Shown: positions 1 through 34,135, counted from the stretch's first letter. The stretch is DNA of 64,000 bases from an uncultured Planctomycetales bacterium (GCA_964354795.1 CAYHBB010000037.1:110197-174196); one strand, 5' to 3'. A program made the numbers and translations. The notes: a model not told the origin generated them from the sequence alone.

Positions 1-800
1 AAACCGAACAATAAAGCGTTTTTAAAGCTGGACTTTCTATGCAGGTTGATCAGGAAATTTAAGGATATCAGGAACCAGGCACATACCATGATATCTACGT
101 ATGCAATATTCATCTGCTTAAAATAATTCGGGGTGACCGTCATCAGCAGCGCGGCAAAAAACGAATATTCCTGCGAAACACACATCTTACGGCTTAGCTT
201 ATATATGCTTAAAGCAGCCATTGCAAAAAAAGGCAGTTGCCCAAGATCCGCCAGGAATACGCTCTTAAAGGGAAAAATAAGCCATAGGTAGATCAGGCTA
301 CCGTTTATAGGAAAGTAAGACGGGCAGGGATTGTCACCGATGACTATCGGAACATCCAGATTTGCGGACTTAAGCCACTCAACAGCAAAGGTAAAGTGAT
401 AATTAAGACTGTCCCAGCCAAAAGGCGCATTAGCCAGGTTGATGACGATCTTGACCAAGGTAAAAGCAATCACCCCGCAGATAAAGAAAATAATGAATTT
501 ATTCTCCGAAAAACCCTTTACCGCCTGAGCAAGGTTTCCAGAGATCTGCTGAGGCCCGATGACCTTAACCCCAGGAATAAACAACAATACCAACATGGCA
601 AGCGCGTTGATCAGATATAGGTTCTCGATACGCAAAACACCAAACATCCCCAAAACCTGCTGGGTAATGACAATATATGAGAAATAAAGAAGCGCGCTGG
701 CAATTACCCTATCCCCTGCCTCAAGGTAATAAAAAAACCGGCGGGTTAGTTCATGCGCAAGCAAAATCACCGGAAAGTTTAATAAGATTAACGCGATCAT
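1..800 (-). CDS. Polytopic membrane protein, 5' part only (ATG at 800-798; runs off the window at position 1). Hydrophobic GT-C/ArnT-like glycan-locus membrane protein.
   Basis: I translated the minus strand by eye: an uninterrupted ~266-codon frame starting MIALILLNFPVILLAHELTRRFFYYLEAGD..., rich in hydrophobic segments. The ATG overlaps the TGA stop of the downstream methyltransferase gene (ATGA). The gene is absent from the supplied ORF track, probably because it is truncated by the window edge. The 74-aa ORF 396-620 (+) lies antisense inside it. Confidence 0.5.
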   Translation of the reverse strand, partial: MIALILLNFPVILLAHELTRRFFYYLEAGDRVIASALLYFSYIVITQQVLGMFGVLRIENLYLINALAMLVLLFIPGVKVIGPQQISGNLAQAVKGFSENKFIIFFICGVIAFTLVKIVINLANAPFGWDSLNYHFTFAVEWLKSANLDVPIVIGDNPCPSYFPINGSLIYLWLIFPFKSVFLADLGQLPFFAMAALSIYKLSRKMCVSQEYSFFAALLMTVTPNYFKQMNIAYVDIMVCAWFLISLNFLINLHRKSSFKNALLFG

Positions 801-1510
801 TTCTTTAGCACCGCCATGTAATGCACGCCGAATTTACGGAAAAATATCCGCTCGCAGAAATCATTTACCCTGCCAAAACTTTTAAACATAAACTTGGGGA
901 TTATGTGAGGGAAAAAAGTATAGTAATGGATTTCCACGACTTTAAACAAACCCTGGCGCAGAAGGTTTTGAGGAGAAACCCAGTTCTCTCCCCCGAATTT
1001 ATCGATCTTATTGGTAAGTGGAAAAATGTAATTAAGGAATACCCTGAACAGAAAAAAGGTGTTTAACTCATGAATGATCAACAGGCCGCCTTTTTTAAGT
1101 ATGCGATGCGCCTGAGCCAAAGCCGAGTTTAACTGCGCGTTATCTCTTAGATGATGCAGGCTGTTCACGCAATAAACGAAATCAAAACTCTCTCGCTCAA
1201 AATTAAGCGCTAAGATGTCCCCCTGCCTGATCAGCGCTAAATTACTTGAATTATGCCTTTTAGCTTCTTCGACTAATGACGCGGAATTATCTATCCCCGT
1301 CATTTCATAGCCGCATTCCGCAAAATTCCTAACATACCAGCCTGTGCCACAGCCAAGATCCATACCTTTACCTTTACCTATCCCGTATTTCTTTAACGCC
1401 GCAACAGTGAGCCTTGTTTTTTTGGCAAGCAGGAATACCCTGATATGTTCAGGAAGCTGCTCATCATAAGTGGAAGCAATAGTATCAAAATGGATATATT
1501 GATCTTGCAT
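797..1510 (-). CDS. Class I SAM-dependent methyltransferase
   Basis: Glycine-rich SAM-binding motif DLGCGTGW, acidic residue after beta-2, and the Methyltransf_11/25-like layout ...FDFVYCVNSLHHL...LKKGGLLII. Confidence 0.8.
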   Translation of the reverse strand: MQDQYIHFDTIASTYDEQLPEHIRVFLLAKKTRLTVAALKKYGIGKGKGMDLGCGTGWYVRNFAECGYEMTGIDNSASLVEEAKRHNSSNLALIRQGDILALNFERESFDFVYCVNSLHHLRDNAQLNSALAQAHRILKKGGLLIIHELNTFFLFRVFLNYIFPLTNKIDKFGGENWVSPQNLLRQGLFKVVEIHYYTFFPHIIPKFMFKSFGRVNDFCERIFFRKFGVHYMAVLKK

Positions 1511-1519
1511 ATAAGAAGC

Positions 1520-2206
1520 CTACGGCTTGCAGACAGCGATAAAGTCTAATGAATCTTCAAGGTTATCCGGCGCAATCTTAAAACTCTCTGGGCCTGCGTT
1601 AATATAAAGCTGTTTTAGTAAACCAATTTTCTTAAGCCGGTGAAAAAAATTAAGCCGCGCCGTGCGTTTAAGCCCGACAATACGCACAGAGCCGTAATAT
1701 TTCTCTAATAAATCCTTAAATTCCTGAAAAGTGTATTCCTTCACATGGAACTTATTCGCGGGAGTAGACTGGCCTGGAGAGGAATCTTTGATATTGCAGG
1801 TTGAGACTATAAATATGCCGTTAGCGGTAAGTAGGACGCGGATATTCTTCAAAAACGATTCTGTGTCAGCCAGATGCTCAATTACCTGAAAACAGCATAT
1901 CACCTCAAATTTATCTGAGATTGTATGCAAGTTCTTTACATCAAGCTGACGGTAGTTGAGATTAGCTTTAGGGTATTTTGACCGTGCGTACTGAACAACC
2001 TCAGCGCTATAATCCAAGCCGGTCACGCTCTTTGCTACGCCGGAAAGATAATGGCTGCCGTATCCGTCTCCGCTTCCAATATCAAGCACAAACTTGCCGG
2101 AACAATAATCTAAGGCGTACTGGTAGGCGCGCAAGTGCCGCGCGATCATCAGGGGGGTTTCTTTTTCTAGTAGGATTCTCTCTCCGGTATTTGAAATTTC
2201 GGTCAT
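1520..2206 (-). CDS. Class I SAM-dependent methyltransferase
   Basis: Motif I VLDIGSGDGYGSHYL, motif post-I GLDYS, and ...FEVICCFQVIEHL...LLTANGIFIVS. Confidence 0.8.
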   Translation of the reverse strand: MTEISNTGERILLEKETPLMIARHLRAYQYALDYCSGKFVLDIGSGDGYGSHYLSGVAKSVTGLDYSAEVVQYARSKYPKANLNYRQLDVKNLHTISDKFEVICCFQVIEHLADTESFLKNIRVLLTANGIFIVSTCNIKDSSPGQSTPANKFHVKEYTFQEFKDLLEKYYGSVRIVGLKRTARLNFFHRLKKIGLLKQLYINAGPESFKIAPDNLEDSLDFIAVCKP

Positions 2207-2967: not shown

Positions 2968-2971
2968 CTTT

Positions 2972-3062
2972 CTCCTTACCCCACAGGGGTAGGCCTTACT
3001 GTCCTATAAGTAAGGGCCTTATCCAGAGGGTTAGGCCTTACTATCCTATAAAGTAAGGGCCT
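2972..3062 (-). repeat. GC-clamp hairpin repeats (TACCCC-ACA-GGGGTAGGCCTT + GGCCTTACT...AGTAAGGGCC, second hairpin duplicated). Member of a hairpin family also present at 48096-48560.
   Basis: The near-identical 45-nt sequence TTACCCCACAGGGGTAGGCCTT(A/C)CT...GGGCCTTA occurs at 2972 and ~48165, with compensatory changes in the second stem. It lies between the SxtK-like stop and the next gene start. Confidence 0.7.
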
Positions 3063-3218
3063 AGAAAAGTGTATAGATAAACGGAGCGACTGCGCTGCCC
3101 TGCGAAAGGAATATCAAAATGCCCAGCAACAGCAAAACTATGATGATCGGCGCAAGCCACCATTTCTTCCTTACCCGCAGGAACTGCCAAAATTCATTGA
3201 TAATTGAAAGCTTTCCCA
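3063..3218 (-). CDS. SxtK-like small membrane protein (51 aa), unannotated in the ORF track
   Basis: Minus-strand ORF MGKLSIINEFWQFLRVRKKWWLAPIIIVLLLLGILIFLSQGSAVAPFIYTLF*. The ATG sits immediately after the SxtJ-like stop. The EFWQFL.RKKWW...APFIYTLF pattern matches, from my recollection of the family, the tiny protein that accompanies SxtI/SxtJ-type carbamoyltransferase modules. Confidence 0.6.
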
Positions 3219-3620
3219 TTAAAATTGCCTTTCGTAATTTAAAGGATTAAAATGTGTTTTTTCTTTGGGCTTCCAGTAAGAATCTTTATCTTTCTGTAGT
3301 CCCCTATCCAGCAAATCTATTCTAAATATTTTAATACCAATACCTATCGGTGTAAAGAACAAATAAAACAAGATACATAGGATTATGCGGGTATTGATCC
3401 AGCCTAAAACAATGGCAAATTTCATCCAGATTATATACACCCATTTTAATGAGCTGGGGAGGACCAAGGAAATAAACAAGAATGCAGCGGAGATCGCAGA
3501 AACCGGCATTGGGCTATGCCTATGCTTAAAAGAAATAACCAGCGCAATGACCGCAAAAGCAGCGCTCATGGTAATCCCAAACTTCCTTAGGTTTTTTTTG
3601 CTAAAATTTAACTTTTCCAT
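3219..3620 (-). CDS. SxtJ-family small membrane protein
   Basis: 133 aa with 3-4 transmembrane segments, immediately downstream of a carbamoyltransferase. This is the typical SxtJ-like arrangement. Confidence 0.6.
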   Translation of the reverse strand: MEKLNFSKKNLRKFGITMSAAFAVIALVISFKHRHSPMPVSAISAAFLFISLVLPSSLKWVYIIWMKFAIVLGWINTRIILCILFYLFFTPIGIGIKIFRIDLLDRGLQKDKDSYWKPKEKTHFNPLNYERQF

Positions 3621-3622
3621 AT

Positions 3623-5434
3623 TTAATCCAGCTCAAATTCCTTCTGCCAGGCAGAATCTTTCTCAAGAGGCTTCTGCTCAAGTTTATCCAGCATGATACT
3701 ACCCATCACCAGATAATCCATCTCTGTACGCATAAAGCACCTGAAAGCGTCTTCAGGCGTGCAAACCAGTGGCTCTCCCCTGACATTGAATGAAGTGTTA
3801 ATGATCACCGGACAGCCGGTCAAATCAAAAAAAGCTTTGATCATATCGTAATAAAGCGGGTTGTCTTCTCGCTTGACTGTCTGAACTCGGGCAGAATAAT
3901 CCACATGCGTGACTGCCGGGATCTGGGACCTGCGGAGTTTCAGCTTATCAAATCCCGCTGCCTTATCCTCAACCCGCAGGCATTTATCTCCGCTTACAGG
4001 AGAAACCAACAACATGTAAGGGCTTTCTTCCTCCATCTCAAACCACTCAGCCACCTCTTCTCTTAATACCGTCGGAGCAAATGGCCGGAATGACTCGCGG
4101 TACTTGATCTTTAAGTTCATGCGCGACTGCATCTCGGGACTGCGCGCATCTCCGATGATACTGCGGGCTCCCAGAGCCCGCGGACCAAACTCCATCCTAC
4201 CCTGAAACCAACCGATAACATTACCTTCATCGATCAACTGAGCGGTCTTTTCGGCTATCTCGGGATAGGACATTCTCTTATAAGAAATATTTTCTTTCTT
4301 TAAGAATGCTTCAATATATTCATCGCTATAATGGGGTCCGAGTAAAGAAGCATGCTGAAAATCCTTTTTGTCATCTGCCTGGCGCTTATTCCCCAGATAT
4401 CTATACCACCCTACCAATGCCGCACCCAAAGCACCTCCCGCATCTCCGCTTGCCGGCTGGATCCAAATCTCTTTAAACGGGCCCTCGCGTAGAATCTTTC
4501 CGTTTCCTACACAGTTAAGCGCCACCCCTCCGGCAAGGCAAAGCTTGTCCTGCTTAGTGACTTCATGCACATGATGCGCCATCTTCAACATTATTTCTTC
4601 GGTGACTTTCTGGATAGAAGCAGCGATATCCATATCTTTTTGGGAGATTTTAGTTTCAGGTCTTCTGGGTGCACCACCAAACAGCCTCTCAAATCTCCAG
4701 TTGGTCATACGCATACCGTAGCAATAGCCAAAATATTTCATATTCAGCTTAAATGACCCGTCTTTTTTGAGGTCAAGCAGCTTATCTTTAATCAAATCCA
4801 CATATTTAGACTCGCCATACGGAGCCAGGCCCATTAATTTGTATTCACCGGAATTAACCTTAAATCCAGTGTAGTAGGTAAAAGCGGAATACAACAAACC
4901 CAGAGAATGTGGGAAACGCAGATCCTTCAACATCTCAATTTCATTATCTTTGCCCACGCCAAAACTTGCAGTCTCCCACTCCCCTACTCCATCCAAAGTC
5001 AAGAATGCCGCTTCCTTAAAAGGCGATGGGTAAAATGCGCTAGCCGCGTGCGACTCGTGATGCCCGGCAAAAATAATCTTACCCTTATATCCCGTTAGCT
5101 CTTCCCTGATCACATCAGGGATCCAAATCTTCTGCTTAAGCCATAAAGGCATGGCCTGAATAAATTGTCTGATTCCCGTCGGAGCATAGGTGAGAGATGT
5201 TTCAAGTATACGTTCAAACTTAATAAACGGCTTCTCGTAGAAAACAATTACATCCAAATCGCTGATCTTGATCTTACCTTCCTGCAGGCACCAATTAATA
5301 GAGTGAATTGGAAAACGGAAATCGTGCTTCTTACGGCTAAAGCGCTCTTCCTGCGCCGCGGCGACAATCCTGCCGTCCTGCACAAAGCAAGCCGCGCTAT
5401 CGTGATAAAATGCTGAAATTCCAAGAATATTCAT
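3623..5434 (-). CDS. Carbamoyltransferase (NodU/CmcH/SxtI family)
   Basis: 603 aa. N-terminus MNILGISAFYHDSAACFVQDGRIVAAAQEERFSRKKHDFRFP is diagnostic of carbamoyltransferase N-domains, and there is a YrdC/HypF-like C-terminal half. Confidence 0.85.
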   Translation of the reverse strand: MNILGISAFYHDSAACFVQDGRIVAAAQEERFSRKKHDFRFPIHSINWCLQEGKIKISDLDVIVFYEKPFIKFERILETSLTYAPTGIRQFIQAMPLWLKQKIWIPDVIREELTGYKGKIIFAGHHESHAASAFYPSPFKEAAFLTLDGVGEWETASFGVGKDNEIEMLKDLRFPHSLGLLYSAFTYYTGFKVNSGEYKLMGLAPYGESKYVDLIKDKLLDLKKDGSFKLNMKYFGYCYGMRMTNWRFERLFGGAPRRPETKISQKDMDIAASIQKVTEEIMLKMAHHVHEVTKQDKLCLAGGVALNCVGNGKILREGPFKEIWIQPASGDAGGALGAALVGWYRYLGNKRQADDKKDFQHASLLGPHYSDEYIEAFLKKENISYKRMSYPEIAEKTAQLIDEGNVIGWFQGRMEFGPRALGARSIIGDARSPEMQSRMNLKIKYRESFRPFAPTVLREEVAEWFEMEEESPYMLLVSPVSGDKCLRVEDKAAGFDKLKLRRSQIPAVTHVDYSARVQTVKREDNPLYYDMIKAFFDLTGCPVIINTSFNVRGEPLVCTPEDAFRCFMRTEMDYLVMGSIMLDKLEQKPLEKDSAWQKEFELD

Positions 5435-5436
5435 GA

Positions 5437-7224
5437 TTACTGTTCTACCTTTGACTCTTTAGGCTGGGCAATAACCTCATACACATCAATGGGTCCGGTT
5501 TCCCGCACGCACCTGATATCCGAATCAGGACAGCTCTCAACAGGAAAAGTATTTACAAATTTTAGTCCGGGATTACTATTTATCCTCGCCACTTCTTCTT
5601 TATCCTCGGTCAATTCTGTCTTTAAGTAATCACCCTTGTGCACCAATACATACTTTACCCCTAACCACTTCAACCTCGCTGCAGCACCCGGATCAGACAA
5701 CTTAGCTACTGTATGAGCAACCTTATTAGCATAGGTTCCCGGAACGGTATAGTTGATCATTTTCTTTTCATGAGTCACCTGATAAAAACGATACATCTCA
5801 TTAGGAGCATCCTGATCCAGCGGATATTCCGCTATAACTGAATCTTTAGGCTGATCTTTAAGCCAATAATACACCTGAGGCACTCTGGAAAGATCTATAA
5901 CCTTAAAAGGAGGATAATTCCAGAATTCAAAAAGCAACAGAAAGGAACAAAGTAAAACCAATCCAGCTTTAGACTTTCTGGTCTTAAAGCTATACAACAA
6001 AAACTTAAGCCCAAAACCCGCCAATACGCTCACCGCGAACATCACCACAATCCCAAACCTGCAATAAGCCCTAAAGGCCGGCAAAATCTGATGGATAAAA
6101 AACGCCGGCATATAAATCTTGATATTCCCTATCTTCCACCACGGAGGTTGTGAGAAAAACCATGCAATCAATGCTAAAAAGACAAAGTATCCGACGTAAA
6201 ACCTGTCTCCTGAATTCTCTCCTCTTTTACGCCTACGAAATGCGATGAAAGCCAGAACAAGCGGCACCCACCCCAAGTAAAGCGTATGCTCGGTAAAACT
6301 TGCTCCGTAAAGCTCCGTACCCACAAATTGCTCAGTAAACCCTCCGAACAAAGGATGCACCACCGCGGGAAGTATATAACTAAGCGGTCGAGCTGACTGG
6401 TCAAATAAATCCTCAAAAGGCCGGTTGTAAACATTAAACGCCGAAGGAGCCATGCCTTTGGAAGCCAGCATTCCTTTAGCCACGGAAATAATCTGGGGAA
6501 GCATAACCAGACAAAATATTAAAAAAGCGAATATAGCCGCTTTTATAAGCTTCTGATTTTTATTAGAAACAAGTGTTTTATTTCTTAATTCCCGTAAAAA
6601 AAAGAATAGAGAAAATAAAACCAAAACCAAACCGGCATACAGGAAATTAAACCCTATGGACATAGAGATTATGCCTAACGAGAATACTAACATACGCTTT
6701 TTTGTGACCTCCGAGGACAGAAGCGCAAAGCCGTATAATGCAAAAGGGATAACCCAGATATATGTATCTCCCAAATGCTGCCAGGTGCGCACAAACATAT
6801 AAGGACAGAATGCAAAAGCAATCCCCGAAAAAAACGCGGATATTCTGTTTTTTGAAACAAAATAAACAAAAGAATAAGCGAAAAAAGCGGCGAGAAAAAA
6901 ATTAACCAATACCTGCAAGTTATAGGTTAGTATGGGGGTAGTCAGGATCGCCAACAGGTAATTTACGCCAAGCCAGATAAAACCAATCTTCTTATAAAGC
7001 TCAACGCCAAAGGGATAAGAAATAAAATCAGTCTTTATTAAGGCAAGATGATTGACAGAGGCAAACTTATTAAACCACCCGGCCCAAGGAATCGAGAATG
7101 ACTCGTCAGAAGAGAAAAAACCGGGCACGTGATCCGTAACCTTAAAAAATAGCGGATACGTCATCGCGATTTCAAGTAAAATAAAAATAATTAAAATGTA
7201 TACAGTCTTTTTCATCCCCACCAC
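5437..7224 (-). CDS. Large polytopic membrane protein (>=10 TM + C-terminal soluble domain); putative glycan polymerase / GT-C-type transferase
   Basis: 595 aa, hydrophobic over about 400 aa. The likely start is MKKTVYIL (M4, ~7215), overlapping the upstream stop as ATGA. Confidence 0.45.
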   Translation of the reverse strand: MVGMKKTVYILIIFILLEIAMTYPLFFKVTDHVPGFFSSDESFSIPWAGWFNKFASVNHLALIKTDFISYPFGVELYKKIGFIWLGVNYLLAILTTPILTYNLQVLVNFFLAAFFAYSFVYFVSKNRISAFFSGIAFAFCPYMFVRTWQHLGDTYIWVIPFALYGFALLSSEVTKKRMLVFSLGIISMSIGFNFLYAGLVLVLFSLFFFLRELRNKTLVSNKNQKLIKAAIFAFLIFCLVMLPQIISVAKGMLASKGMAPSAFNVYNRPFEDLFDQSARPLSYILPAVVHPLFGGFTEQFVGTELYGASFTEHTLYLGWVPLVLAFIAFRRRKRGENSGDRFYVGYFVFLALIAWFFSQPPWWKIGNIKIYMPAFFIHQILPAFRAYCRFGIVVMFAVSVLAGFGLKFLLYSFKTRKSKAGLVLLCSFLLLFEFWNYPPFKVIDLSRVPQVYYWLKDQPKDSVIAEYPLDQDAPNEMYRFYQVTHEKKMINYTVPGTYANKVAHTVAKLSDPGAAARLKWLGVKYVLVHKGDYLKTELTEDKEEVARINSNPGLKFVNTFPVESCPDSDIRCVRETGPIDVYEVIAQPKESKVEQ

Positions 7225-8222
7225 GGACTCAATAACTGACTATTAATAATACAGTCCCCACATACCGGGTTTCCATTGAACACCCCTTCAAGATGCTGCT
7301 TACGGATATCCGCCAAATTCTTGCCCCGCCAAATATCCATAATCTTCTCTTTTACGGCATCCCCTAACTGGACCCTGGTCTCATAATCCTGGCAACACAA
7401 AGCTACTTTACCGTCAAAAGCAACATAAAGAGTCGACCAAAGGTTATAGCAGGGGAACTTCACCAAATGGAAATTGCGGGGAAGATTGTTACTGATATTG
7501 CTCCCCGGCCAATTGAAAATATTCATGAAAATATTCACCTTTTCAACGCTTTTTTTATACTTCTTAATAAACCTGTGCAGATCGCTTTTATTGACATCAA
7601 AATCCTTGAATCTTACCTCGATCTCCGGCTTACTGCTCTTTAATTCTTTCTTTAAAGCGATCAGAGCGTCTATATTCTTTACCACGTCCGGAAACTTATC
7701 GCTGGGTGAGGCAGACCCGGGAGTCTTATGAAGCTGGCCATACACCTCAGGAGATGCGGCATCGATACTGATATAAAGCCGGTCCAAACCCACCTTTATA
7801 AGCCCTTCGGCAATATCCCGAGTCAAAAGCGTACCATTAGTCACACAGTGGACACTTTTAATACCGCTAGCCTTGGCATAGCTGACCTTGGCAAGATAAT
7901 CCTTATCCAGAAGCGGCTCTCCGAAGCCCTGGATCAATACATTTGGAACCTTTTCTTTAGCACACTGGTCAATGACGGACTTAAACAACGCTTCTGCCAT
8001 AATACCGCGCTTTCTTTTCATGGACTCATTGGGGCAGAAAATGCAAGAAAGATTACAAAGGTTAGAATTCTCTACAATCACAAAACTGGGGCATTTTTCC
8101 AGCTGCGGTATTTTTTTGCGCACATTACTTTGGTATAAAGAGCGATATACCGGATTACCCGTTATCAAAGGTGAACCGAGTAGAAAATAGGAGAGTTTCT
8201 TTAATCTATAAAAAGAATTCAT
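7212..8222 (-). CDS. Radical SAM / SPASM-domain protein
   Basis: CNLSCIFC (CxxxCxxC) near the N-terminus and a Cys-rich C-terminus CCQDYETRV...CGDCI. Confidence 0.8.
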   Translation of the reverse strand: MNSFYRLKKLSYFLLGSPLITGNPVYRSLYQSNVRKKIPQLEKCPSFVIVENSNLCNLSCIFCPNESMKRKRGIMAEALFKSVIDQCAKEKVPNVLIQGFGEPLLDKDYLAKVSYAKASGIKSVHCVTNGTLLTRDIAEGLIKVGLDRLYISIDAASPEVYGQLHKTPGSASPSDKFPDVVKNIDALIALKKELKSSKPEIEVRFKDFDVNKSDLHRFIKKYKKSVEKVNIFMNIFNWPGSNISNNLPRNFHLVKFPCYNLWSTLYVAFDGKVALCCQDYETRVQLGDAVKEKIMDIWRGKNLADIRKQHLEGVFNGNPVCGDCIINSQLLSPWWG

Positions 8223-8933: not shown

Positions 8934-9007
8934 ACTATTTACTGGCTATGCATAAATGGCCGCTATCATAATAAGAAATACCGATATTCTTTTATCGCAC
9001 CATATTA

Positions 9008-9835: not shown

Positions 9836-9938
9836 AACATGCTCCTTTTAAAATATAATCGATTAGGCGGTAGAAATGTAAACTGGACATTCCCTACGTG
9901 CCCTGCTATGCCATTCTAGGAGACGGATAAGAAAAAAT

Positions 9939-19207: not shown

Positions 19208-19218
19208 ATTTAAATATT

Positions 19219-20795: not shown

Positions 20796-20798
20796 AGA

Positions 20799-21815: not shown

Positions 21816-21817
21816 CG

Positions 21818-26750: not shown

Positions 26751-26772
26751 ATTAAATCCCTCTTCCAGATAA

Positions 26773-27021
26773 TTACTTGTATTGATAAAACAAAAATACC
26801 AGAATCACAACGCTTAATAGAGAAACCGAATTAGCCGCAATAATGATCGGATCTTTCAAATGAACGCCGTAGGCAAGCCACAAAGATACGCCCACGCCAA
26901 ACTGCAAAATAGTAGTCAGGCTAACATCCCTTACAGACTTAGTCTTAAATATCTTAATGATCTGCGGAACAAAAGCAAATGTCGTCAAAGCCGCAGCTAA
27001 GCCGCCTATGATATACCACAT
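26773..27021 (-). CDS. SemiSWEET / PQ-loop sugar transporter (82 aa, 3 TM)
   Basis: Three transmembrane helices with the PQ motif ([13 protein letters not shown]). Its stop overlaps the rmlB start. Confidence 0.65.
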
Positions 27022-28010
27022 TATTTATATAATGGCGCGATACTTTCCCATTTGGAAAACAGCCATCCCCGGTTAACCTTTGCCCAAGAAACAGTTTTCT
27101 TTAAACCTTCTTCTAAATTCACTTTCGGCCTCCAGCCGGTCTCTCTTACCGTCTTAGAGCAATTAAGCCTATAGCGGATATCATGGCCGAGCCTGTCTTT
27201 TACAAATTCTATCCTGTCCAACGAAACCCCGAGCACATTCAAAAGCAACCTTATGGTATCCAGATTCTGACGCTCTTCATTGCTGCCAATATTATAGACC
27301 TCACCGATTTTTCCTTTTAGCAATATTGACAAAATTCCACGTGCGCAGTCATCCACATAAAGCCACTCCCGCACATTCCTACCAGTACCGTAAACCGGTA
27401 TATCCTCTCCCCGGAAGATCTTTAATATTGAAAGCGGGATCAGCTTTTCCGGGTATTGCCAAACTCCGTAATTATTGCAGGGCCGTACAATCACAGCAGG
27501 AAATTCATAGGTCCTGATATAAGAATTAATCAAGAGATCCGCGGCTGCTTTTGAAGCAGCATAAGGACTATTGGGTTTTATGGGGGAAGATTCGGTAAAT
27601 TCACCGCTTGCAATCTCTCCGTACACCTCATCTGTCGAGACATGGACAAATCTTTCAACGCCATACTTACGCGAAGCATCCAATAAAATCTGGGTCCCAA
27701 TGACATTGGTCTTAAGAAAAACTTCCGCATCGCGAATACTTCTATCCACATGGGTTTCCGCGGCAAAGTTTACGATCACCCTGGGCTTGTGCTTCTTAAA
27801 GATCTTCTCCACCTCAGCCTTGTCCACGATATCAGCTTTATAAAATCTACATTCATCCAAGACGCCTTTTAACCTTTTTAGATCTCCGGCATAGGTAAGT
27901 TTATCCATAATAATCACCCGGAATCCAAATTTTACCGCAAGTCGCACAAAAGCGCTGCCGATAAACCCTGCACCGCCGGTAACTAATATTGGGTGTATTT
28001 TTCTACGCAT
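27021..28010 (-). CDS. rfbB: dTDP-glucose 4,6-dehydratase
   Basis: [15 protein letters not shown]; ...FVHVSTDEVYGE...YAASKAAADLL. 329 aa. Confidence 0.85.
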   Translation of the reverse strand: MRRKIHPILVTGGAGFIGSAFVRLAVKFGFRVIIMDKLTYAGDLKRLKGVLDECRFYKADIVDKAEVEKIFKKHKPRVIVNFAAETHVDRSIRDAEVFLKTNVIGTQILLDASRKYGVERFVHVSTDEVYGEIASGEFTESSPIKPNSPYAASKAAADLLINSYIRTYEFPAVIVRPCNNYGVWQYPEKLIPLSILKIFRGEDIPVYGTGRNVREWLYVDDCARGILSILLKGKIGEVYNIGSNEERQNLDTIRLLLNVLGVSLDRIEFVKDRLGHDIRYRLNCSKTVRETGWRPKVNLEEGLKKTVSWAKVNRGWLFSKWESIAPLYK

Positions 28011-28801
28011 TCTTCAAGCACCTCATGGATGTCGCGGACTTTAAAACCGCTTTTTCTTAATTTACGCGTTGAGAGGATCAAATTGGTCCTTACCAGATTC
28101 AGGGCCTTAAAGCTAACTAACTTATATTTAAAATCAGGATTAAATTTCTGGTAAATATCCAGCAGCTCGGGATACCTTAAGGCTCCGGCATTCACCGTAT
28201 TATAAATCCCTGTCGCCTTGATCTTGATCAGATGCTTCAGGGCTTTTATAAAATCCGGCAGGTAAGTAATAGAATTGGCCACATCAATGGCTTTCCCGTA
28301 TTTGATCAGCTTGGTAAGTATGTTCTTGGGATGCGGACGGTCATCCAAAGGAATACGCGGCCGCATGATCAATACTGGATATTTTTTAGCTAACGGCAAG
28401 AGCGCCTGCTCAGCATAGATCTTACTGCGGCTATAAAAAAGATCAAAAAAATCCGGAGTGCGCTCTTCAGTTATCGGTACAGCCCGCTTATAATCAAAAT
28501 TATAAATGCAACCGCTGCTTAAATGCACAAACCGGATTTTAGTACGCACCGCCGCTTCAGCAAGGACAAGCGGAACAAAAGTGTTAGCGCTTAATGTCAG
28601 GTCCTTTGCTTTTTCGCAGTCATCTACATTGCCACCGGTATATCCGATACAATTGATGATCACCGCAGGCCGATGAATCCTTACCTCATCCAGAACGTCA
28701 TTTAAACATTTGATCTTTCTTTCACTGACAGCGCAACCCAGCTTTTCCTGAATCCGGGAACCGATAAAGCCTTTTCCGAAAATGAGAATCTTGTTATTCA
28801 T
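27983..28801 (-). CDS. rfbD: dTDP-4-dehydrorhamnose reductase-like (RmlD family 4-ketoreductase)
   Basis: [13 protein letters not shown], 272 aa, RmlD-like SDR layout, sits between rmlB and rmlA. Confidence 0.7.
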
Positions 28802-29661
28802 TTCTTGACCAAGCCCCTCAGGTACTCCCCATACTCAGTAGGAATATTCTTAGCTAAGATCAAGAGTTCCTTTGCGCTGATATAGCCTCTAGCATAGGCC
28901 ACCTCTTCGATGCACCCGATCTTCAAACCCTGCCGCTCTTCAATAGTCTTTATAAACGTCGAGGCGTTCACCAAAGAATCATATGTCCCGGTATCCAGCC
29001 AGGCAAAGCCACGGCCCAAAGTAACAACATTAAGTTTCTTTTTCTTTAAGTATTCCCGGTTTACATCAGTGATCTCAAGCTCGCCCCTTGCGGAAGGCGA
29101 GATATTTCTTGCGATATCCACTACGCCGTTGTCATAAAAATATAACCCGGTGACCACCCAATTTGACGCAGGCTTCTTAGGCTTCTCAATTATTGAGCTG
29201 ACTTTTCCCTTCTGGTCAAATCCGATTACCCCGTATCTTTGCGGACTAGTTACATAATAGCCGAAAATCGTGGCCCCTGACTTATGCCCGGAAGCTTTTT
29301 TCAGTATGCTGACCAGATCGCTTCCGTAATAAATGTTATCCCCCAGGATCAACGCGACACTGTCTTGGCCAATAAACTGCTCGCCGATAATAAAGCTCTC
29401 CGCGATCCCCCGCGGCGCGCTTTGCGACGCATAAGTTATGCGTATGCCTAAGGAAGAACCGTCTCCCAGCAACGCCTCGAATTGCGGCAGGGCATGGGGC
29501 GTGGAAATGATCAGGATATCTTTGATGCCGGCAAGCATCAAAGTAGAAAGCGGATAATAAATCATCGGCTTGTCGTATACCGGCAGAAGCTGCTTGCAGA
29601 CGCTTCTTGTGATCGGATAAAGCCGTGTTCCGTTTCCTCCCGCTAAGATTATACCTTTCAT
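28798..29661 (-). CDS. rfbA: Glucose-1-phosphate thymidylyltransferase
   Basis: [46 protein letters not shown] matches the RmlA N-terminus almost residue-for-residue. Confidence 0.9.
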
Positions 29662-29670: not shown

Positions 29671-31155
29671 CTAGTTAACTTTAGAATAATCTTTTTTGAA
29701 ATCCACAATATGGCCGATGACTTTCTGGGCTGCGCGCAGAGAATACTTAAGGTCATCCGCATCGCGCATGGAGAATATTTTCCTGAGCATAAACTCAGGG
29801 GTAAATGAGACCTTATACATCTGCCGGGCAAAACCCATGATCTCCTCGTCAGGAATCGGACTGCTCATCACCGGGCGCTTCATATCAAAATCATCCCAGT
29901 CAGTAGTCTTGAGCCACCCGTTATTCTTAGCCTCCTCAAACAGCGGACTTCCCGGATAAGGAATGACCACAGTCGCCTGCATGGTATAAGCATAGCCTTT
30001 TTTAAGCAGCCAGCGGCCGAGGTTTAAGGTGTTCATAGCCTGCTCATAGCTCTCCCAGGGGTAGCCAAACATCATGGTGATATGAGGAAAAAGCCCGGCT
30101 TTTGTCGCGGCAATGCAATCCGCGATGATCCTTTCCACTTTCAAATTCTTATTTATACGGTCAAGCGTCTCCTGATTAGCCGATTCCAAACCAAATAACA
30201 ATAAACGAAAGTTCGCCTTCTTCATCAGCTTAAAATCTTCCCCAGAAAGCGCGCCAAAACGCATATTACAGTCAAAATATATCTTTTTATTATATCCGCG
30301 CTCGACCATGCCCCGACAGAAATCTTTAAGCCATCCGCCGGCTGAAAAACATCCGGCGTCATCCATGACCTCCCGCACGCCATAATTCTCGATCAACCCG
30401 CCGATCTCATCCAAAACATTCTCTACGCTACGGGTGCGATATTGAGGATAAAGCGTCGGCCATGAGCAAAATGTGCACTTGCCCCACCAGCAGTCGCGTC
30501 CGCTCATGATATAAGCTCCGGGAGTACGCTTATAATTACCGTTTTTATAAGCGTAATCTTCCCAGCGGGTCAGTTCGCGCTCAATTGGCGGCAGAGAATT
30601 CAGATCGTGGTTAAGCTGAAACTGACCGGTGTTCTTGACCGAATCGCCATCGCGATAGTAGATACCCGGTTCCAATTGGGGTGAGTTGCGGGTTGTGGGT
30701 TGTGTGGATAAATGATTACATAAATTTAGCAGAAGGAAATCATAATCTCCACCGGTAAGCACAAAATCCACGCCACATTCTTTAAACGACTCTTCTGCCA
30801 GCGCCGTAACATGATCACCGAAAAGCACAACCTTTGGAAACCCGCGCAGCGCCCCCTTGATCTCATCAATGATCTCCCAGTGCTGCTTTACCGCAGGGGT
30901 CTTAGTTTCTATGGCGATCACATCCGGCCGCTCGGCCTTCAGAGTCTTAAGAAATTGTTCAAGACTGATCTCTGCGGCAATACAATCAAGCCATATCACC
31001 TGATGACCGGCCTGCTTAAGCATAGTTGCGGCCTGCGCCGGAACAACCGGATAAATATAGGTCGGCTCCTTAAAATACTGGAACTGCCGGTTTTGTCCCA
31101 AAGTGGGACAACCCTTAAACCTGTTTAAAGGCGGATATGCAATAATTATCTTCAA
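29671..31155 (-). CDS. Cobalamin(B12)-binding radical SAM protein with apparent variant Cys motif
   Basis: B12-binding-like N-domain (PDVIAIETKTP...). The Cys cluster reads GRDCWWGKCTFC, i.e. Cx4Cx2C by eye rather than CxxxCxxC. 494 aa. Confidence 0.7.
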   Translation of the reverse strand: MKIIIAYPPLNRFKGCPTLGQNRQFQYFKEPTYIYPVVPAQAATMLKQAGHQVIWLDCIAAEISLEQFLKTLKAERPDVIAIETKTPAVKQHWEIIDEIKGALRGFPKVVLFGDHVTALAEESFKECGVDFVLTGGDYDFLLLNLCNHLSTQPTTRNSPQLEPGIYYRDGDSVKNTGQFQLNHDLNSLPPIERELTRWEDYAYKNGNYKRTPGAYIMSGRDCWWGKCTFCSWPTLYPQYRTRSVENVLDEIGGLIENYGVREVMDDAGCFSAGGWLKDFCRGMVERGYNKKIYFDCNMRFGALSGEDFKLMKKANFRLLLFGLESANQETLDRINKNLKVERIIADCIAATKAGLFPHITMMFGYPWESYEQAMNTLNLGRWLLKKGYAYTMQATVVIPYPGSPLFEEAKNNGWLKTTDWDDFDMKRPVMSSPIPDEEIMGFARQMYKVSFTPEFMLRKIFSMRDADDLKYSLRAAQKVIGHIVDFKKDYSKVN

Positions 31156-31165: not shown

Positions 31166-32170
31166 CTATTTTTCCTCAGAAAGCCTTGCGGAAAGCAGGC
31201 CCTTAAGGAAAAAGATCCCGTATGCAATATGACTAAATATTATAGCAAAGAATACGGGAAATATCAACTGTAACTCTTTGGAAAGGCTCGAGATAAAGGC
31301 GAGCAAGAGATACAGTCCAAGGCAGGTAAAATAGGCTACTTTTATCCAAGGGCTAAGCATAGACAACACACCGCCTGAAACCAGCCCAAGCACAAAAACC
31401 GTAGGCAGAAAATAGGATAATCTTAGAGATGTCTCCGGGTACTTTTTCACAAAATAACCCCGGTGCAGGCCATAGCTTGAGATCTGCTTTAAATGCGGGA
31501 GATATATCTTTCGGCGGTGATGGTAAACCAAAACTGCAGGGTCATAAACGATTCTTTTCTTTAATTTATGGGTGATATCCAGGCAAAGCTTGGTATCCTC
31601 TCCCGGCCAGAACTTAGTATCAAAACCACCCAGCTCATCCATCACTGACTTACGCACCAGCAGATTACAGCTGGGATAATCATCCACGTCCCTCTTCTTC
31701 CCTGCTATATATCTGTAGCGGTACTGACCGCTTATCAACCATGATTCATATACTATCCCGCTGACTTTCTGACGCCATGAATCATCAAGAGGTGTAACCG
31801 CCGGCCCTCCCACTGCCGCGACCTCAGGATCGCTGAAATTAGCCAGTGCGGCTTTAAGCCAGCCCTTTACCGGATAGGCGTCATCGTCGAGAAATGCCAA
31901 GATCTGCCCCTTGGCGTGCTTTAAAGCGATATCCCGTTTGTCTGAAGGTTTAAGGGGGCCGGTGGGAATAATCTGAACAGAAGGGGACACTCTTGGTATA
32001 GCATCTTTTGCGCTTCCAAGGGTGTCCCCTTCTGTTGTAAGAGTCCCTATTTCAGCGTCTGGAAGTATGATTATCTCAAAATCCGGATAATCAAGCTCTA
32101 GACACCTAGCGACGCATTCTTCTAAATTCTTTTGCCAGGTTTTTACGGCGATGATAATCGATACGGTCAT
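31166..32170 (-). CDS. Glycosyltransferase family 2 with C-terminal multi-TM domain
   Basis: VSIIIAVKTW...FEIIILPD...ILAFLDDDAYP (GT-A), then hydrophobic helices. A 47-nt perfect hairpin (31983-32029) lies inside the coding sequence. Confidence 0.75.
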   Translation of the reverse strand: MTVSIIIAVKTWQKNLEECVARCLELDYPDFEIIILPDAEIGTLTTEGDTLGSAKDAIPRVSPSVQIIPTGPLKPSDKRDIALKHAKGQILAFLDDDAYPVKGWLKAALANFSDPEVAAVGGPAVTPLDDSWRQKVSGIVYESWLISGQYRYRYIAGKKRDVDDYPSCNLLVRKSVMDELGGFDTKFWPGEDTKLCLDITHKLKKRIVYDPAVLVYHHRRKIYLPHLKQISSYGLHRGYFVKKYPETSLRLSYFLPTVFVLGLVSGGVLSMLSPWIKVAYFTCLGLYLLLAFISSLSKELQLIFPVFFAIIFSHIAYGIFFLKGLLSARLSEEK

Positions 32171-32900
32171 AGTATTTTAAGATGTACATCCTGTACCAGA
32201 CTGCCAAAGTATCCCAGAAAGTAGTGAAAACTGCTGGGGGCTTAATAAATCCAAATCTACTTGCTGGAAGATATTCTATAGGGGCATCAGTAATTTTATA
32301 TCCAAGGCGATACGCATTAGCAAGTAACTCAATATCAAATGCAAATTTCTTAACGAGCAATCGCGGAAAGACATCGCGCAATACATTTGCTTTAAATAGC
32401 TTTAAGCCTGTCTGAGTGTCTCTGCAAGGCAAGCCAAAAAGCATTTTCACAATAGCATAATAAACTAAGCTTACTATCCTACGATGCCAAGGATAAATGA
32501 CTACGGAATTAGGATGCATTTTTGAGCCAATAACTACATCCGCCCTATCCAGGCGCATGATATCAAAAAGGGTCTGTATTTGCAAAGGATGCAGATCCAT
32601 ATCCGCATCCAGAAACACCACATATTCTCCGGTCACAAAATGCAGCGCCCTTTTTATTGCCCGGCCCTTGCCCATGTTGTAAGAATTCTTCTTAACTATT
32701 ATATGGGCAGCGTGCCTGGACGCGGCATTAAGAGCTACTTCAAAAGTATCATCAGTAGAGCCATCATCAAGCACGATAAGCTCCAACTCGCATCCGAAAT
32801 CAGTAAAAGCTTTTGTGGTTTCTTCTATACTGTGAGCAATCCGATTTGCCTCATTATATGCAGGCATCACTACCGATATTTTTTCTTTTATGTCTTTCAT
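32106..32900 (-). CDS. Glycosyltransferase family 2 (Dpm1/polyprenyl-phosphate sugar synthase-like)
   Basis: ISVVMPAYNEANRI...LELIVLDDGSTDDT...VVFLDADMD. Overlaps the next GT2 gene by 65 nt. Confidence 0.85.
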   Translation of the reverse strand: MKDIKEKISVVMPAYNEANRIAHSIEETTKAFTDFGCELELIVLDDGSTDDTFEVALNAASRHAAHIIVKKNSYNMGKGRAIKRALHFVTGEYVVFLDADMDLHPLQIQTLFDIMRLDRADVVIGSKMHPNSVVIYPWHRRIVSLVYYAIVKMLFGLPCRDTQTGLKLFKANVLRDVFPRLLVKKFAFDIELLANAYRLGYKITDAPIEYLPASRFGFIKPPAVFTTFWDTLAVWYRMYILKYYDRIDYHRRKNLAKEFRRMRR

Positions 32901-34135
32901 TTTCTATAAATCAGCCTTAGATGAACAAAGAAAAGCAAGATCGAACTAAAACACATGATCACCTGTACTACTAGCAACGACGGATGAAATAACATTATCC
33001 CGATCACCTGCGCAAGGCTGACCGGAACCAAAAATTTAATAAATCGCAGGTCCCTTACAGACAGAAAATAAGTCACCAGGATAAACAACAGCGTATAAAA
33101 AGTCATGGATACGCTAAACAGCCTGCCTAAAATTATCGATTCCGGATAAGCCTTCCCCGTAAGCACGGTCAAGACAAATCCAGGAAAGACATTATAGAAG
33201 ATAGCGGCAATTATCGCCAAAATAAAAACATAAAACAAGGATTTCTTAAGCGTGGAGTGAGTATCCTGATTCTTCGCATGCAGCCCGGAAGTACGTGGAA
33301 ACATCACCACACTTATTGCTCCGGGAAGGAAAAGAAATATCTTTCCGATCATCTGCGCCAAAGCGTACGCTCCTGAATCTTGCTGGCTGAAATAATATCG
33401 CACCAGGACCATATCAAAAGAAGTTATCGCAGTAAAACAAAAAAACGCGATAGCTACGGGAAATAGATAAGTGAATATTTCTTTAAAATTTATCTCCTGC
33501 CTACCTATCTTACCGATCAAATACTTCTTTAAAGGCACATAGGCAAATCCGATAGCAGCCAATGCCGATATCAGAAGCGCTGCCATTGCTCCGGCAATGT
33601 TGTAACTAAGGATAATAAATACAAAGGCCAGGCCTAACTTTAAAGCCCCGGAAATAACTGTAGCAGCGGATAGCCACCAAAACAATTCCAGCCCCTGCAG
33701 AGCTCCTAAAAATACCGGAGAAAGCCACGCCGAAGCGATGAGTGCCGCAAAAATATACCCTAACGCCACAGATTCGATCTTGAGCAGGCTCATTAAGTAC
33801 GCCGAGCCAAGGCAAAATATCGCAAGCGTCACAACAGCGCAAATAAATGCGGCCTTAAAAAAACTTGAGAATAAATAACTTATTTTTGCTTCTTCGCCGC
33901 GGGCATTAAAAGCCGAGATGTATTTGGCTAAAGCCAACTGCAGAGTCCCCAGCGGCACCGAGAAAAGCATAAATACGGAAAGCAGCGAATTAAATCCGGC
34001 GAATTCTATCGAGGTGAGCTTATGAGCGATGAGCAGCTGAAAAAGCAGGTTCAGGAAATTAAGGAGTGAAGCTGAGGCAAAAACAACGATGATGTTGCGG
34101 GTGAAGGCATCGATCTTCTTAAGCTTTGCGAGCAT
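32897..34135 (-). CDS. Oligosaccharide flippase (Wzx/PST family)
   Basis: 412 aa, about 12 transmembrane segments, N-terminal pattern typical of polysaccharide-biosynthesis (PST) exporters. Confidence 0.7.
   Translation of the reverse strand: MLAKLKKIDAFTRNIIVVFASASLLNFLNLLFQLLIAHKLTSIEFAGFNSLLSVFMLFSVPLGTLQLALAKYISAFNARGEEAKISYLFSSFFKAAFICAVVTLAIFCLGSAYLMSLLKIESVALGYIFAALIASAWLSPVFLGALQGLELFWWLSAATVISGALKLGLAFVFIILSYNIAGAMAALLISALAAIGFAYVPLKKYLIGKIGRQEINFKEIFTYLFPVAIAFFCFTAITSFDMVLVRYYFSQQDSGAYALAQMIGKIFLFLPGAISVVMFPRTSGLHAKNQDTHSTLKKSLFYVFILAIIAAIFYNVFPGFVLTVLTGKAYPESIILGRLFSVSMTFYTLLFILVTYFLSVRDLRFIKFLVPVSLAQVIGIMLFHPSLLVVQVIMCFSSILLFFVHLRLIYRK

Follow-up and report, generated by a model that had tools for sequence, protein, structure and literature searches.

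What does a bacterium build with 34 kb of closely packed genes in which the machinery of surface-polysaccharide assembly is interleaved with eight methyltransferases, four radical S-adenosylmethionine (SAM) enzymes and a carbamoylation cassette of the kind found in saxitoxin clusters? The question is raised by positions 1-34,135 of a 64,000-nucleotide (nt) stretch, referred to here as the window, that is deposited as DNA of an uncultured Planctomycetales bacterium (GCA_964354795.1, CAYHBB010000037.1:110197-174196). The answer argued for below is that these genes are probably the larger part of a >42-kb mosaic and hypervariable locus for a lipopolysaccharide (LPS) O-antigen-type glycan, which would depend on a Wzx flippase and be further modified by GT-C-type glycosylation and by a carbamoylation module of the sxtIJK type. 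The cluster lies beside tyrS, whose product matches metagenome-assembled genomes of Candidatus Omnitrophota (94% identity in contig L001, 66-78% in L002-L009), and by that protein the host is assigned to the Omnitrophota. The kind of locus is ordinary, and hypervariable O-antigen/capsule cassettes of ~25 kb, with O-antigen ligase and heptosyltransferase II, have already been reported for this phylum in two preprints (bioRxiv 10.64898/2026.05.20.726742 and 10.64898/2026.06.07.730766).

The cluster consists of 36 back-to-back minus-strand open reading frames (ORFs), including one of 52 aa (3061-3219) and one cut by the window edge (3-800). A first-pass annotation, made from the sequence alone, had counted about 37; the tight run that it described stands, with 30 of the 35 junctions at 15 nt or less, 16 of the 35 being overlaps, and the four gaps above 70 nt measuring 74-103 nt. 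The 9-nt spacing between the Wzx gene and tyrS, the adjoining upstream housekeeping boundary, is likewise as described. The same annotation singled out a 'unidirectional supercluster' as a distinctive trait, and this has to be given up. All window genes between 1 and 48.2 kb and between 50.4 and 64 kb are on the minus strand, leaving three plus-strand ORFs at 48.66-50.40 kb; co-directionality is a trait of the whole 64-kb window and no hallmark of the cluster. Base composition does set it apart: 43.4% GC against 47.8% in the housekeeping remainder, with a cassette at 5.4-15.4 kb falling to 40.6%. The arrangement recurs in three other assemblies (80-100% protein identity), and dozens of metagenome contigs contain sub-modules of it that are 40-75% identical.

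Domain calls (Pfam and NCBIfam profile searches with family cut-offs, and NCBIfam equivalog cut-offs for RmlA and RmlB) support the general reading of a locus for assembling and tailoring a glycan, with methyltransferases and radical SAM enzymes in unusual density and a carbamoylation cassette. The Wzx flippase, four family-2 (GT2) and one family-4 (GT4) glycosyltransferases, nucleotide-sugar dehydrogenase, hexapeptide acyltransferase, classical short-chain dehydrogenase/reductase (SDR) and SemiSWEET are all confirmed. So are all eight methyltransferases, as class-I enzymes, and the three cobalamin (B12)-binding radical SAM enzymes, each with PF02310 and PF04055 above cut-offs, together with the radical SAM/SPASM protein. 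Other first-pass calls hold in part. In the proposed rmlA/B/D set, RmlA and RmlB exceed their equivalog cut-offs and the RmlD-like protein falls far below its own (55 against 224 bits). No cluster gene matches RmlC, the dTDP-sugar isomerase/cupin, and a canonical L-rhamnose pathway was rejected on these two counts, the missing RmlC and the weak RmlD. Instead of five further epimerases, one of them GME-like, we count four extra extended-SDR enzymes, of which one resembles GDP-fucose synthase and none is shown to be GME. The ATP-grasp ligase is a sub-threshold call (NCBIfam PRK12767-type, 62 bits; Pfam ATP-grasp_3, E=0.009) with no match in a sequence search of the PDB; gene calls in relatives L081 and L082 make it 360 aa long. 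The best NCBIfam matches of the fourth GT2 (d) are AglJ, GpgS, ArnC and PpgS, at 58-70 bits, all below cut-off.

The left limit of the locus is the window edge and not its true end. Contig L171 (JGI Ga0373628_0000970) has 98% nt identity to window 1-2967, and L167 has 83%; the edge-cut ORF is 99.6% identical to the start of a 684-aa ORF in L171 and 81% identical to that of a 676-aa ORF in L167. Beyond the edge, L171 encodes this 684-aa membrane protein, two GT2s of 232 and 225 aa, a 406-aa PF04932 (Wzy_C) protein, a 387-aa protein of unknown function, a family-9 glycosyltransferase (GT9) and ManC; L167 keeps the same order as far as GT9. The observation that no classical Wzy is evident is thus an artefact of truncation, because the sister contigs, one of them nearly identical, continue with a Wzy_C protein and GT9. 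The best match of GT9 is LPS heptosyltransferase II, and its gene adjoins or lies near the Wzy_C gene in both contigs, a neighbourhood that would tie the locus to LPS.

The relatives also show the locus to be a mosaic. Measured against L082 and L171, nucleotide identity is 98% in window 1-2967, 87% in 3062-5449, 98% in 15420-16379 and 92% in 16474-29212; between these flanks, window 5450-15420 matches at ~68% or not at all. The diverged ~10 kb holds the GT-C protein, the SPASM enzyme, five or six methyltransferases, B12-binding radical SAM enzyme a and GT4. In the sister strain its place is taken by two other B12-binding radical SAM enzymes, four methyltransferases, a GT4 that is 42% identical and a GT-C protein that is 55% identical. 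By analogy, conserved flanks round a swapped centre are the signature of antigenically variable surface-glycan loci. One methyltransferase, MT4 (9008-9835), has 30% GC between neighbours at ~41-46%, is bracketed by gaps of 74 nt (8934-9007) and 103 nt (9836-9938), and has no counterpart detected in L167 or L171; it was probably inserted recently, as a single gene. The locus is better taken as a mosaic of modules (an rml/SemiSWEET core, accessory glycosyltransferase and tailoring blocks, the swapped 10-kb cassette and a carbamoyltransferase/GT-C module) than as a single designed pathway.

The part of the mosaic next to tyrS is the most stable. The order PGM-S1-tyrS-SemiSWEET-rmlA-rmlD'-rmlB-Epi4(-Epi3) is kept in Omnitrophota relatives, with the S1-to-Epi block at 54-78% identity and the RmlD-like gene conserved between rmlA and rmlB; Epi4 is 70-76% identical in L002-L005, and in L002 it is followed by Epi3 (63%). 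The SemiSWEET gene directly follows tyrS and precedes rmlA in seven of these relatives (L002-L008), whatever comes next, and by this gene order the linkage of SemiSWEET to dTDP-sugar genes appears to be a stable one. Downstream of the core, L002 and L005 have unrelated genes (AAA/DUF4143 proteins, a peptidase and unknowns). Because the SemiSWEET/rml/epimerase block is kept beside tyrS while downstream genes differ among relatives, we take it to be a lineage-level core. On the same comparison the accessory part would comprise all that lies downstream of Epi3, together with the Wzx-GT2-GT2-radical SAM enzyme c block that has been inserted ahead of rmlA, next to tyrS; these accessory genes are confined to a species-level group (the window, L001, L081/L167 and L082/L171). 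In L002 an IS200-like (Y1_Tnp) transposase gene (9617-10303) separates tyrS from the SemiSWEET gene, and the junction downstream of tyrS may be a place where insertions recur.

At the other end of the cluster lies a module that travels widely. First-pass calls of a carbamoyltransferase with SxtJ- and SxtK-like partners are borne out by Pfam (scores in the table). Counterparts of the carbamoyltransferase occur in 80 metagenome contigs at 60-87% identity, and SxtJ is found next to them in 62 of the 80 and DUF5989 in 56. More than ten longer metagenome contigs share an order: YfhO-like GT-C, carbamoyltransferase, SxtJ, DUF5989, DUF3108, optionally a methyltransferase, large membrane protein, GT2, GT2. 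Variants include an added DUF2079 membrane protein in the distant contigs L165 and L169, and a GT2-GtrA fusion in L169. The DUF3108 protein (254 aa) owes its name to a precomputed PF11306 match on the 100% identical P0248; this match was absent when the window protein was scanned directly with Pfam. Its AlphaFold2 model (pLDDT 91) is an anchored, beta-barrel-like structure, for which the best Foldseek match is DUF1849 (TM 0.53), with YmcC/LolA-like matches weaker. 

Two big polytopic membrane proteins had been noted in the cluster, and structure prediction allows one of them to be named. The 595-aa ORF (true product 592 aa; P0121 is 100% identical) is one of a family with many members in Omnitrophota; here and there its homologues have PF19830 (DUF6311) or PF09586 matches or the name 'YfhO family'. 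Modelled by AlphaFold2 from 45 homologues (pLDDT 84, pTM 0.86), it is matched by Foldseek with probability 1.0 and TM ~0.5 to STT3, AftD, DPY19, AglB, PglB and AftA; a D37-E38 pair near the N-terminus is invariant in the alignment of homologues. A PDB profile search with that same alignment gave no match, and the fold search alone succeeded. On the model, the 592-aa protein is predicted to have a GT-C fold. The edge-cut protein is polytopic and a candidate second GT-C, not demonstrably one, and in relatives its full-length counterpart is always followed by two short GT2s; those of L167 best match ArnC, AglJ, PpgS and dolichyl-P-hexose transferase, at up to 125 bits and far below cut-off. A GT-C fold together with GT2s that resemble polyprenyl-phosphate sugar synthases fits a three-component scheme of periplasmic glycan modification.

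Of the B12-binding radical SAM enzymes, enzyme a has a canonical CxxxCxxC motif at residue 198 and enzyme b has one whose cysteines (C199/C203/C206) do not vary across 28 homologues; enzyme c is without it and has the variant C222-WWGK-C227-TF-C230 (C-x4-C-x2-C). Its best NCBIfam match is the hopanoid ring-contraction enzyme HpnJ, at 142 bits for a cut-off of 578. Among solved structures, enzymes a and b come closest to the class B C-methyltransferase QCMT (9CCB) and to AprD4, TokK and OxsB (best E=2.5e-17, for enzyme a with QCMT), and the SPASM enzyme to BtrN (E=4e-14). On unrelated contigs, orthologues of enzyme b (~50% identity) sit among a nucleotide-sugar dehydrogenase, SDR epimerases, glycosyltransferases, methyltransferases and the carbamoylation module.

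Enzyme b has viral relatives too. Two IMG/VR viral contigs, found by an alignment query where single-protein scans gave none, carry copies of enzyme b (46-49% identical) with a gene resembling GT2a (38-40%), a hexapeptide acyltransferase, a GT2 and an SDR epimerase. They are L170, which is the same as L175 (Ga0392393_0000237 / IMGVR_UViG_3300037408_000289, at ~600-9400), and L174 (IMGVR_UViG_3300031227_004064, at 670-9700); the cassette is a relative of window 17813-21815. In L170/L175 the cassette is joined by genes for a DegT aminotransferase and a radical SAM/SPASM protein, and terminase, portal and capsid genes lie 2-8 kb downstream of the radical SAM gene. From its gene content the viral cassette looks like a phage-borne module of the seroconversion type.

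Because orthologues of enzyme b, the viral copies included, sit among glycan genes, a sugar is the best-supported substrate for the B12-binding enzymes. Their reaction may be C-methylation or other radical chemistry; the class B family includes non-methylating members, such as the ring-contracting OxsB and BchE. Nor are glycan loci rich in such enzymes limited to the lineage of the window, since contig L163 (GCA_041643025.1, JBGGHK010000003.1) has a large cluster (1-21395) with three B12-binding radical SAM genes, a GT-C_AftD-type protein, unknowns of 811-924 aa, GT2 and GT4 genes, a nucleotide-sugar dehydrogenase and an ATP-grasp homologue (54% identity). To our knowledge, radical C-methylation, oxidation and rearrangement of sugars have so far been documented in antibiotic and cofactor pathways only. 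The first-pass annotation did not recognise its combination of enzymes as a described glycan pathway, and the literature searched agrees with it: no surface-glycan (O-antigen/capsule) pathway with B12-binding radical SAM enzymes, or with such a carbamoylation cassette, was found there, which is no proof of absence. A term search of the two Omnitrophota preprints gave no mention of carbamoyl groups or radical SAM in polysaccharide cassettes.

How might the pieces work together? The tyrS-linked core (SemiSWEET, RmlA, RmlD-like protein, RmlB and two extended-SDR enzymes) would make dTDP-4-keto-6-deoxyglucose and 6-deoxyhexoses derived from it, without a canonical RmlC. A polyprenol-linked repeat unit would be built and modified by the four GT2s, GT4, the dehydrogenase, the SDRs, the O-acyltransferase and the ATP-grasp ligase, which could plausibly amidate a uronic acid, and would then be flipped by Wzx. 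The eight class-I methyltransferases would account for O-/N-methylation, and the three B12-binding enzymes and the BtrN-like SPASM enzyme for radical C-methylation, oxidation or rearrangement of sugars. The GT-C, carbamoyltransferase, SxtJ, DUF5989, DUF3108 and second membrane proteins, with the short GT2s, may provide membrane O-carbamoylation and three-component periplasmic glycosylation by way of polyprenyl-phosphate sugars. Past the edge, the Wzy_C-family ligase or polymerase, the GT9 heptosyltransferase and ManC would complete the locus. Recombination would keep the flanks and swap the ~10-kb GT-C/methyltransferase/radical SAM cassette between them, as expected of antigenic variation under phage pressure. 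A C-/O-methylated, carbamoylated, amidated glycan rich in 6-deoxyhexoses is a reasonable prediction of the product from this gene content. With more hesitation, and at less than even confidence, we propose that the B12-binding and SPASM enzymes act directly on envelope-polysaccharide sugars, that together with methyltransferases and a GT-C they form a serotype cassette exchanged among strains and even phages, and that SemiSWEET and SxtJ/DUF5989 are unrecognised membrane components of glycan assembly, the former perhaps as a transporter of polyprenyl-phosphate sugar or of sugar, the latter perhaps as a membrane dock for carbamoylating lipid-linked intermediates.

Several observations weigh against an LPS O-antigen-type locus of this construction. 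No initiating phosphoglycosyltransferase (PF00953/PF02397) is matched by any of the 36 genes of the cluster, by another 23 scanned in the window or in the continuation tables of L171 and L167, and no Wzz (PF02706) or ABC exporter is found in the cluster or its known continuation; the absence of the first two had been noted from the start and extends to the 8 kb beyond, in a relative. The initiating transferase is often encoded outside such clusters. Continuation past the window edge is itself read from relatives (L167 and L171), and the Wzy_C protein of L167 has weak NCBIfam matches only (IctB, 71 bits; putative exosortase-linked O-glycosylation ligase, 65 bits). WaaL ligases, the PglL/PilO O-oligosaccharyltransferases and some Wzy polymerases all fall within PF04932, and a match to this family does not by itself tell a ligase from a polymerase or a protein O-oligosaccharyltransferase. 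We do not call the second membrane protein GT-C, because comparison with a YfhO-like profile by hhalign gives a probability of 10% and its full-length relatives have no Pfam or NCBIfam match; its PMT_2 match is at E=0.024. For the three-component scheme, a flippase of the GtrA/ArnEF type (PF04138) is not matched in the window. The radical SAM enzymes reach no curated NCBIfam family cut-off, the matches of the B12-binding ones (PhpK, ApyD, HpnJ, HpnR, BchE, QCMT-type and others) lying 3-5 fold below, and the Omnitrophota contig L168 has a homologue of enzyme b alone among housekeeping genes, directly after cinA.

The breadth of PF04932, and the 'O-glycosylation ligase' score of the L167 protein, give a foothold to the idea that the glycan is destined for proteins (pilin, S-layer or envelope proteins), with Wzx flipping it, the Wzy_C protein transferring it as a PglL/PilO-type enzyme and the GT-Cs perhaps glycosylating proteins as well; the protein-glycosylating STT3, DPY19, PglB and Pmt4 are among the best fold matches of the GT-C protein, and the lack of Wzz and of a recognisable polymerase would suit a short, non-polymerised glycan. 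We consider this quite unlikely, given that a GT9 resembling LPS heptosyltransferase II is near the Wzy_C gene in both relatives and that such Omnitrophota cassettes are described as O-antigen/capsule loci. Foldseek scores to the polysaccharide GT-Cs AftD and AftA are similar, and the WWDYG motif of STT3/PglB is not established: an invariant 'PPWW' (357-360) lies between predicted membrane helices and not in a C-terminal periplasmic domain. A nearer contender, although we still rate it somewhat unlikely, would divide this recombination-prone island into several independent envelope-glycan systems, namely a housekeeping rml/SemiSWEET operon, a pathway for a Wzx-dependent repeat unit and one or two autonomous three-component systems that modify side chains and bring a carbamoylation cassette of their own; the prediction of one heavily decorated glycan would then merge what is separate. 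Its modules do occur apart: the rml core is found without the rest in L002-L008, the carbamoyltransferase/SxtJ/DUF5989/DUF3108/GT-C module in many contigs with otherwise different neighbours, and the radical SAM enzyme b/GT2/hexapeptide sub-module on phage contigs, and the central cassette is exchanged independently of its flanks. The close junctions of the cluster and the lack of enrichment of terminator-like sites suggest co-transcription instead, four assemblies of the lineage hold the whole gene set together, and a modular origin is compatible with a common acceptor.

Least probable by far is that the central cassette (5.4-15.4 kb) makes something other than a glycan inside a glycan locus, such as a proteusin-like, C-methylated ribosomally synthesised and post-translationally modified peptide (RiPP) or a methylated lipid. 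RiPP maturases (ApyD, 134-138 bits), PhpK, HpnJ/HpnR and a lipid B12-binding radical SAM enzyme are among the sub-threshold matches, the SPASM protein weakly matches peptide maturases, and QCMT, the solved structure to which enzymes a and b come nearest, is a C-methyltransferase that acts on glutamine in protein. The RiPP reading was rejected because no gap (none exceeds 103 nt) can hold a precursor gene, and no plausible precursor-peptide ORF is present; the cassette also has neither a peptidase nor a RiPP recognition element, an ABC exporter or any gene for lipid synthesis. What it does hold is a GT4 and a GT-C, the glycan-gene neighbours of enzyme b orthologues have been described above, and BtrN oxidises an aminocyclitol. 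The O-antigen-type reading of the locus is the one that we retain.

Table 1. Genes of the cluster and the adjoining tyrS, in window coordinates
Feature	Coordinates	Strand	Evidence
Edge-cut polytopic membrane protein, N-terminal 266 aa of 676-684 aa	3..800	-	~7 hydrophobic segments; weak PMT_2, E=0.024
SAM methyltransferase MT1	797..1510	-	Methyltransf_11, 82 bits
SAM methyltransferase MT2	1520..2206	-	Methyltransf_11/31, 65-67 bits
DUF3108-type exported beta-barrel-like protein, N-terminal anchor helix	2203..2967	-	PF11306 on 100% identical P0248; AlphaFold2 model
DUF5989 single-pass membrane protein, 52 aa, SxtK-sized	3061..3219	-	PF19451, E=5.6e-27, 94 bits
SxtJ-family small membrane protein	3219..3620	-	PF19588, 35 bits (cut-off 24)
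NodU/CmcH/SxtI-type O-carbamoyltransferase	3623..5434	-	Carbam_trans_N 341 bits, Carbam_trans_C 250 bits
Predicted GT-C-fold membrane glycosyltransferase, YfhO/DUF6311-like, 592 aa	5437..7215	-	AlphaFold2 model and Foldseek
Radical SAM/SPASM enzyme	7212..8222	-	Radical_SAM 70 bits, SPASM 47 bits; CxxxCxxC residues 56-63
SAM methyltransferase MT3	8223..8933	-	Methyltransf_11, 47 bits
SAM methyltransferase MT4	9008..9835	-	Methyltransf_23/11, 35 bits
Methyltransf_24-type methyltransferase MT5	9939..10637	-	PF13578, 70 bits
SAM methyltransferase MT6	10639..11304	-	Methyltransf_11, 48 bits
SAM methyltransferase MT7	11295..12098	-	Methyltransf_11, 89 bits
B12-binding radical SAM enzyme a	12095..13579	-	B12-binding 53 bits, Radical_SAM 80 bits
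SAM methyltransferase MT8	13580..14218	-	Methyltransf_23, 78 bits
GT4 glycosyltransferase	14220..15413	-	Glycos_transf_1 / Glyco_trans_1_4, 63-66 bits
Epi1, extended-SDR epimerase/reductase, GDP-fucose-synthase-like	15415..16377	-	Epimerase 157 bits; NCBIfam GDP-L-fucose synthase 139 bits, sub-cut-off
Nucleotide-sugar 6-dehydrogenase	16474..17799	-	TIGR03026, 362 bits (cut-off 190)
B12-binding radical SAM enzyme b	17813..19207	-	B12-binding 78 bits, Radical_SAM 67 bits
GT2 glycosyltransferase a	19219..20244	-	Glycos_transf_2, 106 bits
Hexapeptide-repeat O-acyltransferase	20241..20795	-	Hexapep; EpsC/CysE-like 109 bits, sub-cut-off
GT2 glycosyltransferase b	20799..21815	-	Glycos_transf_2, 65 bits
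Classical SDR oxidoreductase	21818..22552	-	adh_short_C2, 217 bits
ATP-grasp-like ligase, 360 aa from ATG used in relatives (mechanical ORF to 23697)	22552..23634	-	Sub-threshold matches
Epi2, extended-SDR epimerase/dehydratase	23627..24616	-	Epimerase 170 bits
Epi3, extended-SDR epimerase/dehydratase, lineage core	24613..25686	-	Epimerase 110 bits
Epi4, extended-SDR epimerase/dehydratase, lineage core	25683..26750	-	Epimerase 119 bits
SemiSWEET, 82 aa	26773..27021	-	PQ-loop 46 bits, MtN3_slv 41 bits
RmlB, dTDP-glucose 4,6-dehydratase	27021..28010	-	TIGR01181, 416 bits (cut-off 365)
RmlD-like short SDR reductase, 272 aa, non-canonical	27983..28801	-	TIGR01214, 55 bits (cut-off 224)
RmlA, glucose-1-phosphate thymidylyltransferase	28798..29661	-	TIGR01207, 452 bits (cut-off 361)
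B12-binding radical SAM enzyme c, HpnJ-like	29671..31155	-	B12-binding 41 bits, Radical_SAM 55 bits
GT2 glycosyltransferase c, C-terminal TM-like segments residues 251-302	31166..32170	-	Glycos_transf_2, 59 bits
GT2 glycosyltransferase d, polyprenyl-phosphate-sugar-synthase-like	32106..32900	-	Glycos_transf_2, 98 bits
Wzx-type (MOP family) flippase, polytopic, 412 aa	32897..34135	-	PF01943 Polysacc_synt, 39 bits (cut-off 28.2)
tyrS, upstream boundary	34145..35356	-	tRNA-synt_1b, 277 bits

A scan for promoter- and terminator-like sites gave no excess over shuffled controls and is uninformative, none of the minus-strand sites listed falls inside an intergenic gap of the cluster, and Rfam and tRNA scans found no RNA genes in the window. 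Two hairpin-rich intergenic inserts (2968-3060 and 16378-16473) are strain-specific, sister contigs having 9-28 nt at these junctions. The former contains two copies of CCTTACT-N8/9-AGTAAGG (chance expectation 0), and the latter has a predicted fold of -44.9 kcal/mol (z = -4.5); they could be elements like repetitive extragenic palindromes or miniature inverted-repeat transposable elements, or structures that process or stabilise transcripts. The sole plus-strand island of the window (48660-50398), read by eye, holds a CinA-like ORF (48660-49142), a 117-aa unknown (49276-49629) and a LigT/2H-phosphoesterase-like ORF (49826-50398). The site in L168 where the enzyme b homologue follows cinA has the same pgpA-pgsA-rimO-rodZ-ftsK neighbourhood as this island.

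Surface polysaccharide loci are main determinants of recognition by phages and predators, and the Omnitrophota form an abundant group of ultra-small bacteria that are uncultured. That their hypervariable glycan cassettes can carry radical SAM enzymes, which we did not find described for O-antigen or capsule pathways in the literature searched, and that related tailoring sub-modules ride on phages, directs attention to the enzymology of B12-binding radical SAM and SPASM enzymes on envelope sugars, to the sxtIJK counterparts, to the recurrent module that contains them and to the phage-borne relatives of the tailoring genes. The enzymes are small enough to express, so that C-methylation and radical tailoring of sugars could be tested without culturing the host.

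Compared with Wzx/Wzy O-antigen (rfb-type) and capsule clusters, the locus shares the grouping of nucleotide-sugar genes, several glycosyltransferases, Wzx and an acyltransferase in one co-directional block, a lower GC content than its flanks, conserved flanks round a swapped middle, and Wzy_C and heptosyltransferase II in its continuation. It differs from them in having no phosphoglycosyltransferase, Wzz, identifiable Wzy polymerase or RmlC, and in having the eight methyltransferases, the three B12-binding radical SAM enzymes, the SPASM enzyme, the sxtIJK-like cassette, two large membrane proteins and SemiSWEET. Class B radical SAM enzymes with carbohydrate substrates are known from antibiotic pathways, GenK and GenD1 among them. 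Like these, the enzymes of the window join a B12-binding domain at the N-terminus to a radical SAM core that carries a cysteine triad, and they have neighbours that handle sugar nucleotides and transfer glycosyl groups; the SPASM/twitch dehydrogenase BtrN is the nearest solved relative of the SPASM enzyme. Unlike the characterised members, they show remote similarity (PDB E ~1e-17 at best), NCBIfam scores far below cut-off and, in enzyme c, the C-x4-C-x2-C spacing; their setting is a cell-envelope polysaccharide locus, whereas the antibiotic enzymes are encoded in secondary-metabolite clusters. Class B reactions include the methylations of gentamicin and the ring contraction of OxsB (PMC12931638).

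Three-component systems of GT2, flippase and GT-C are an established paradigm of periplasmic glycan modification (PMC11127046, PMC8035078, PMC7389260). The locus resembles GtrA/B/C, ArnC/ArnEF/ArnT and CsbB/GtcA/YfhO in combining a protein of predicted GT-C fold with short GT2s that have polyprenyl-phosphate sugar synthases as their best matches, the second large membrane protein of relatives being followed by two such GT2s and one relative having a GT2-GtrA fusion; it departs from them in that the GT2 matches are sub-threshold and in coupling a carbamoyltransferase, SxtJ, DUF5989 and a DUF3108 barrel to the module, none of which belongs to the three-component systems known. No described system covers this recurrent combination of GT-C, carbamoyltransferase, SxtJ, DUF5989, DUF3108, large membrane protein and GT2. 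The finding that the sxtI-J-K trio of saxitoxin clusters has widespread, highly conserved counterparts in glycan loci gives a concrete context in which the roles of SxtJ and SxtK could be worked out. The gene order is that of sxtI-sxtJ-sxtK, the sizes are nearly the same (603/133/52 aa against 612/134/54 aa, the latter calculated from gene lengths in PMC2679770), and the Pfam families (Carbam_trans_N/C, SxtJ and DUF5989) are the same; the O-carbamoyltransferases NodU, NolO, CmcH and TobZ are also among the closest known systems. In saxitoxin clusters the trio serves alkaloid biosynthesis; here it stands in a context of glycan assembly, linked in addition to DUF3108 and GT-C proteins, and conserved at 60-87% identity across many uncultured bacteria.

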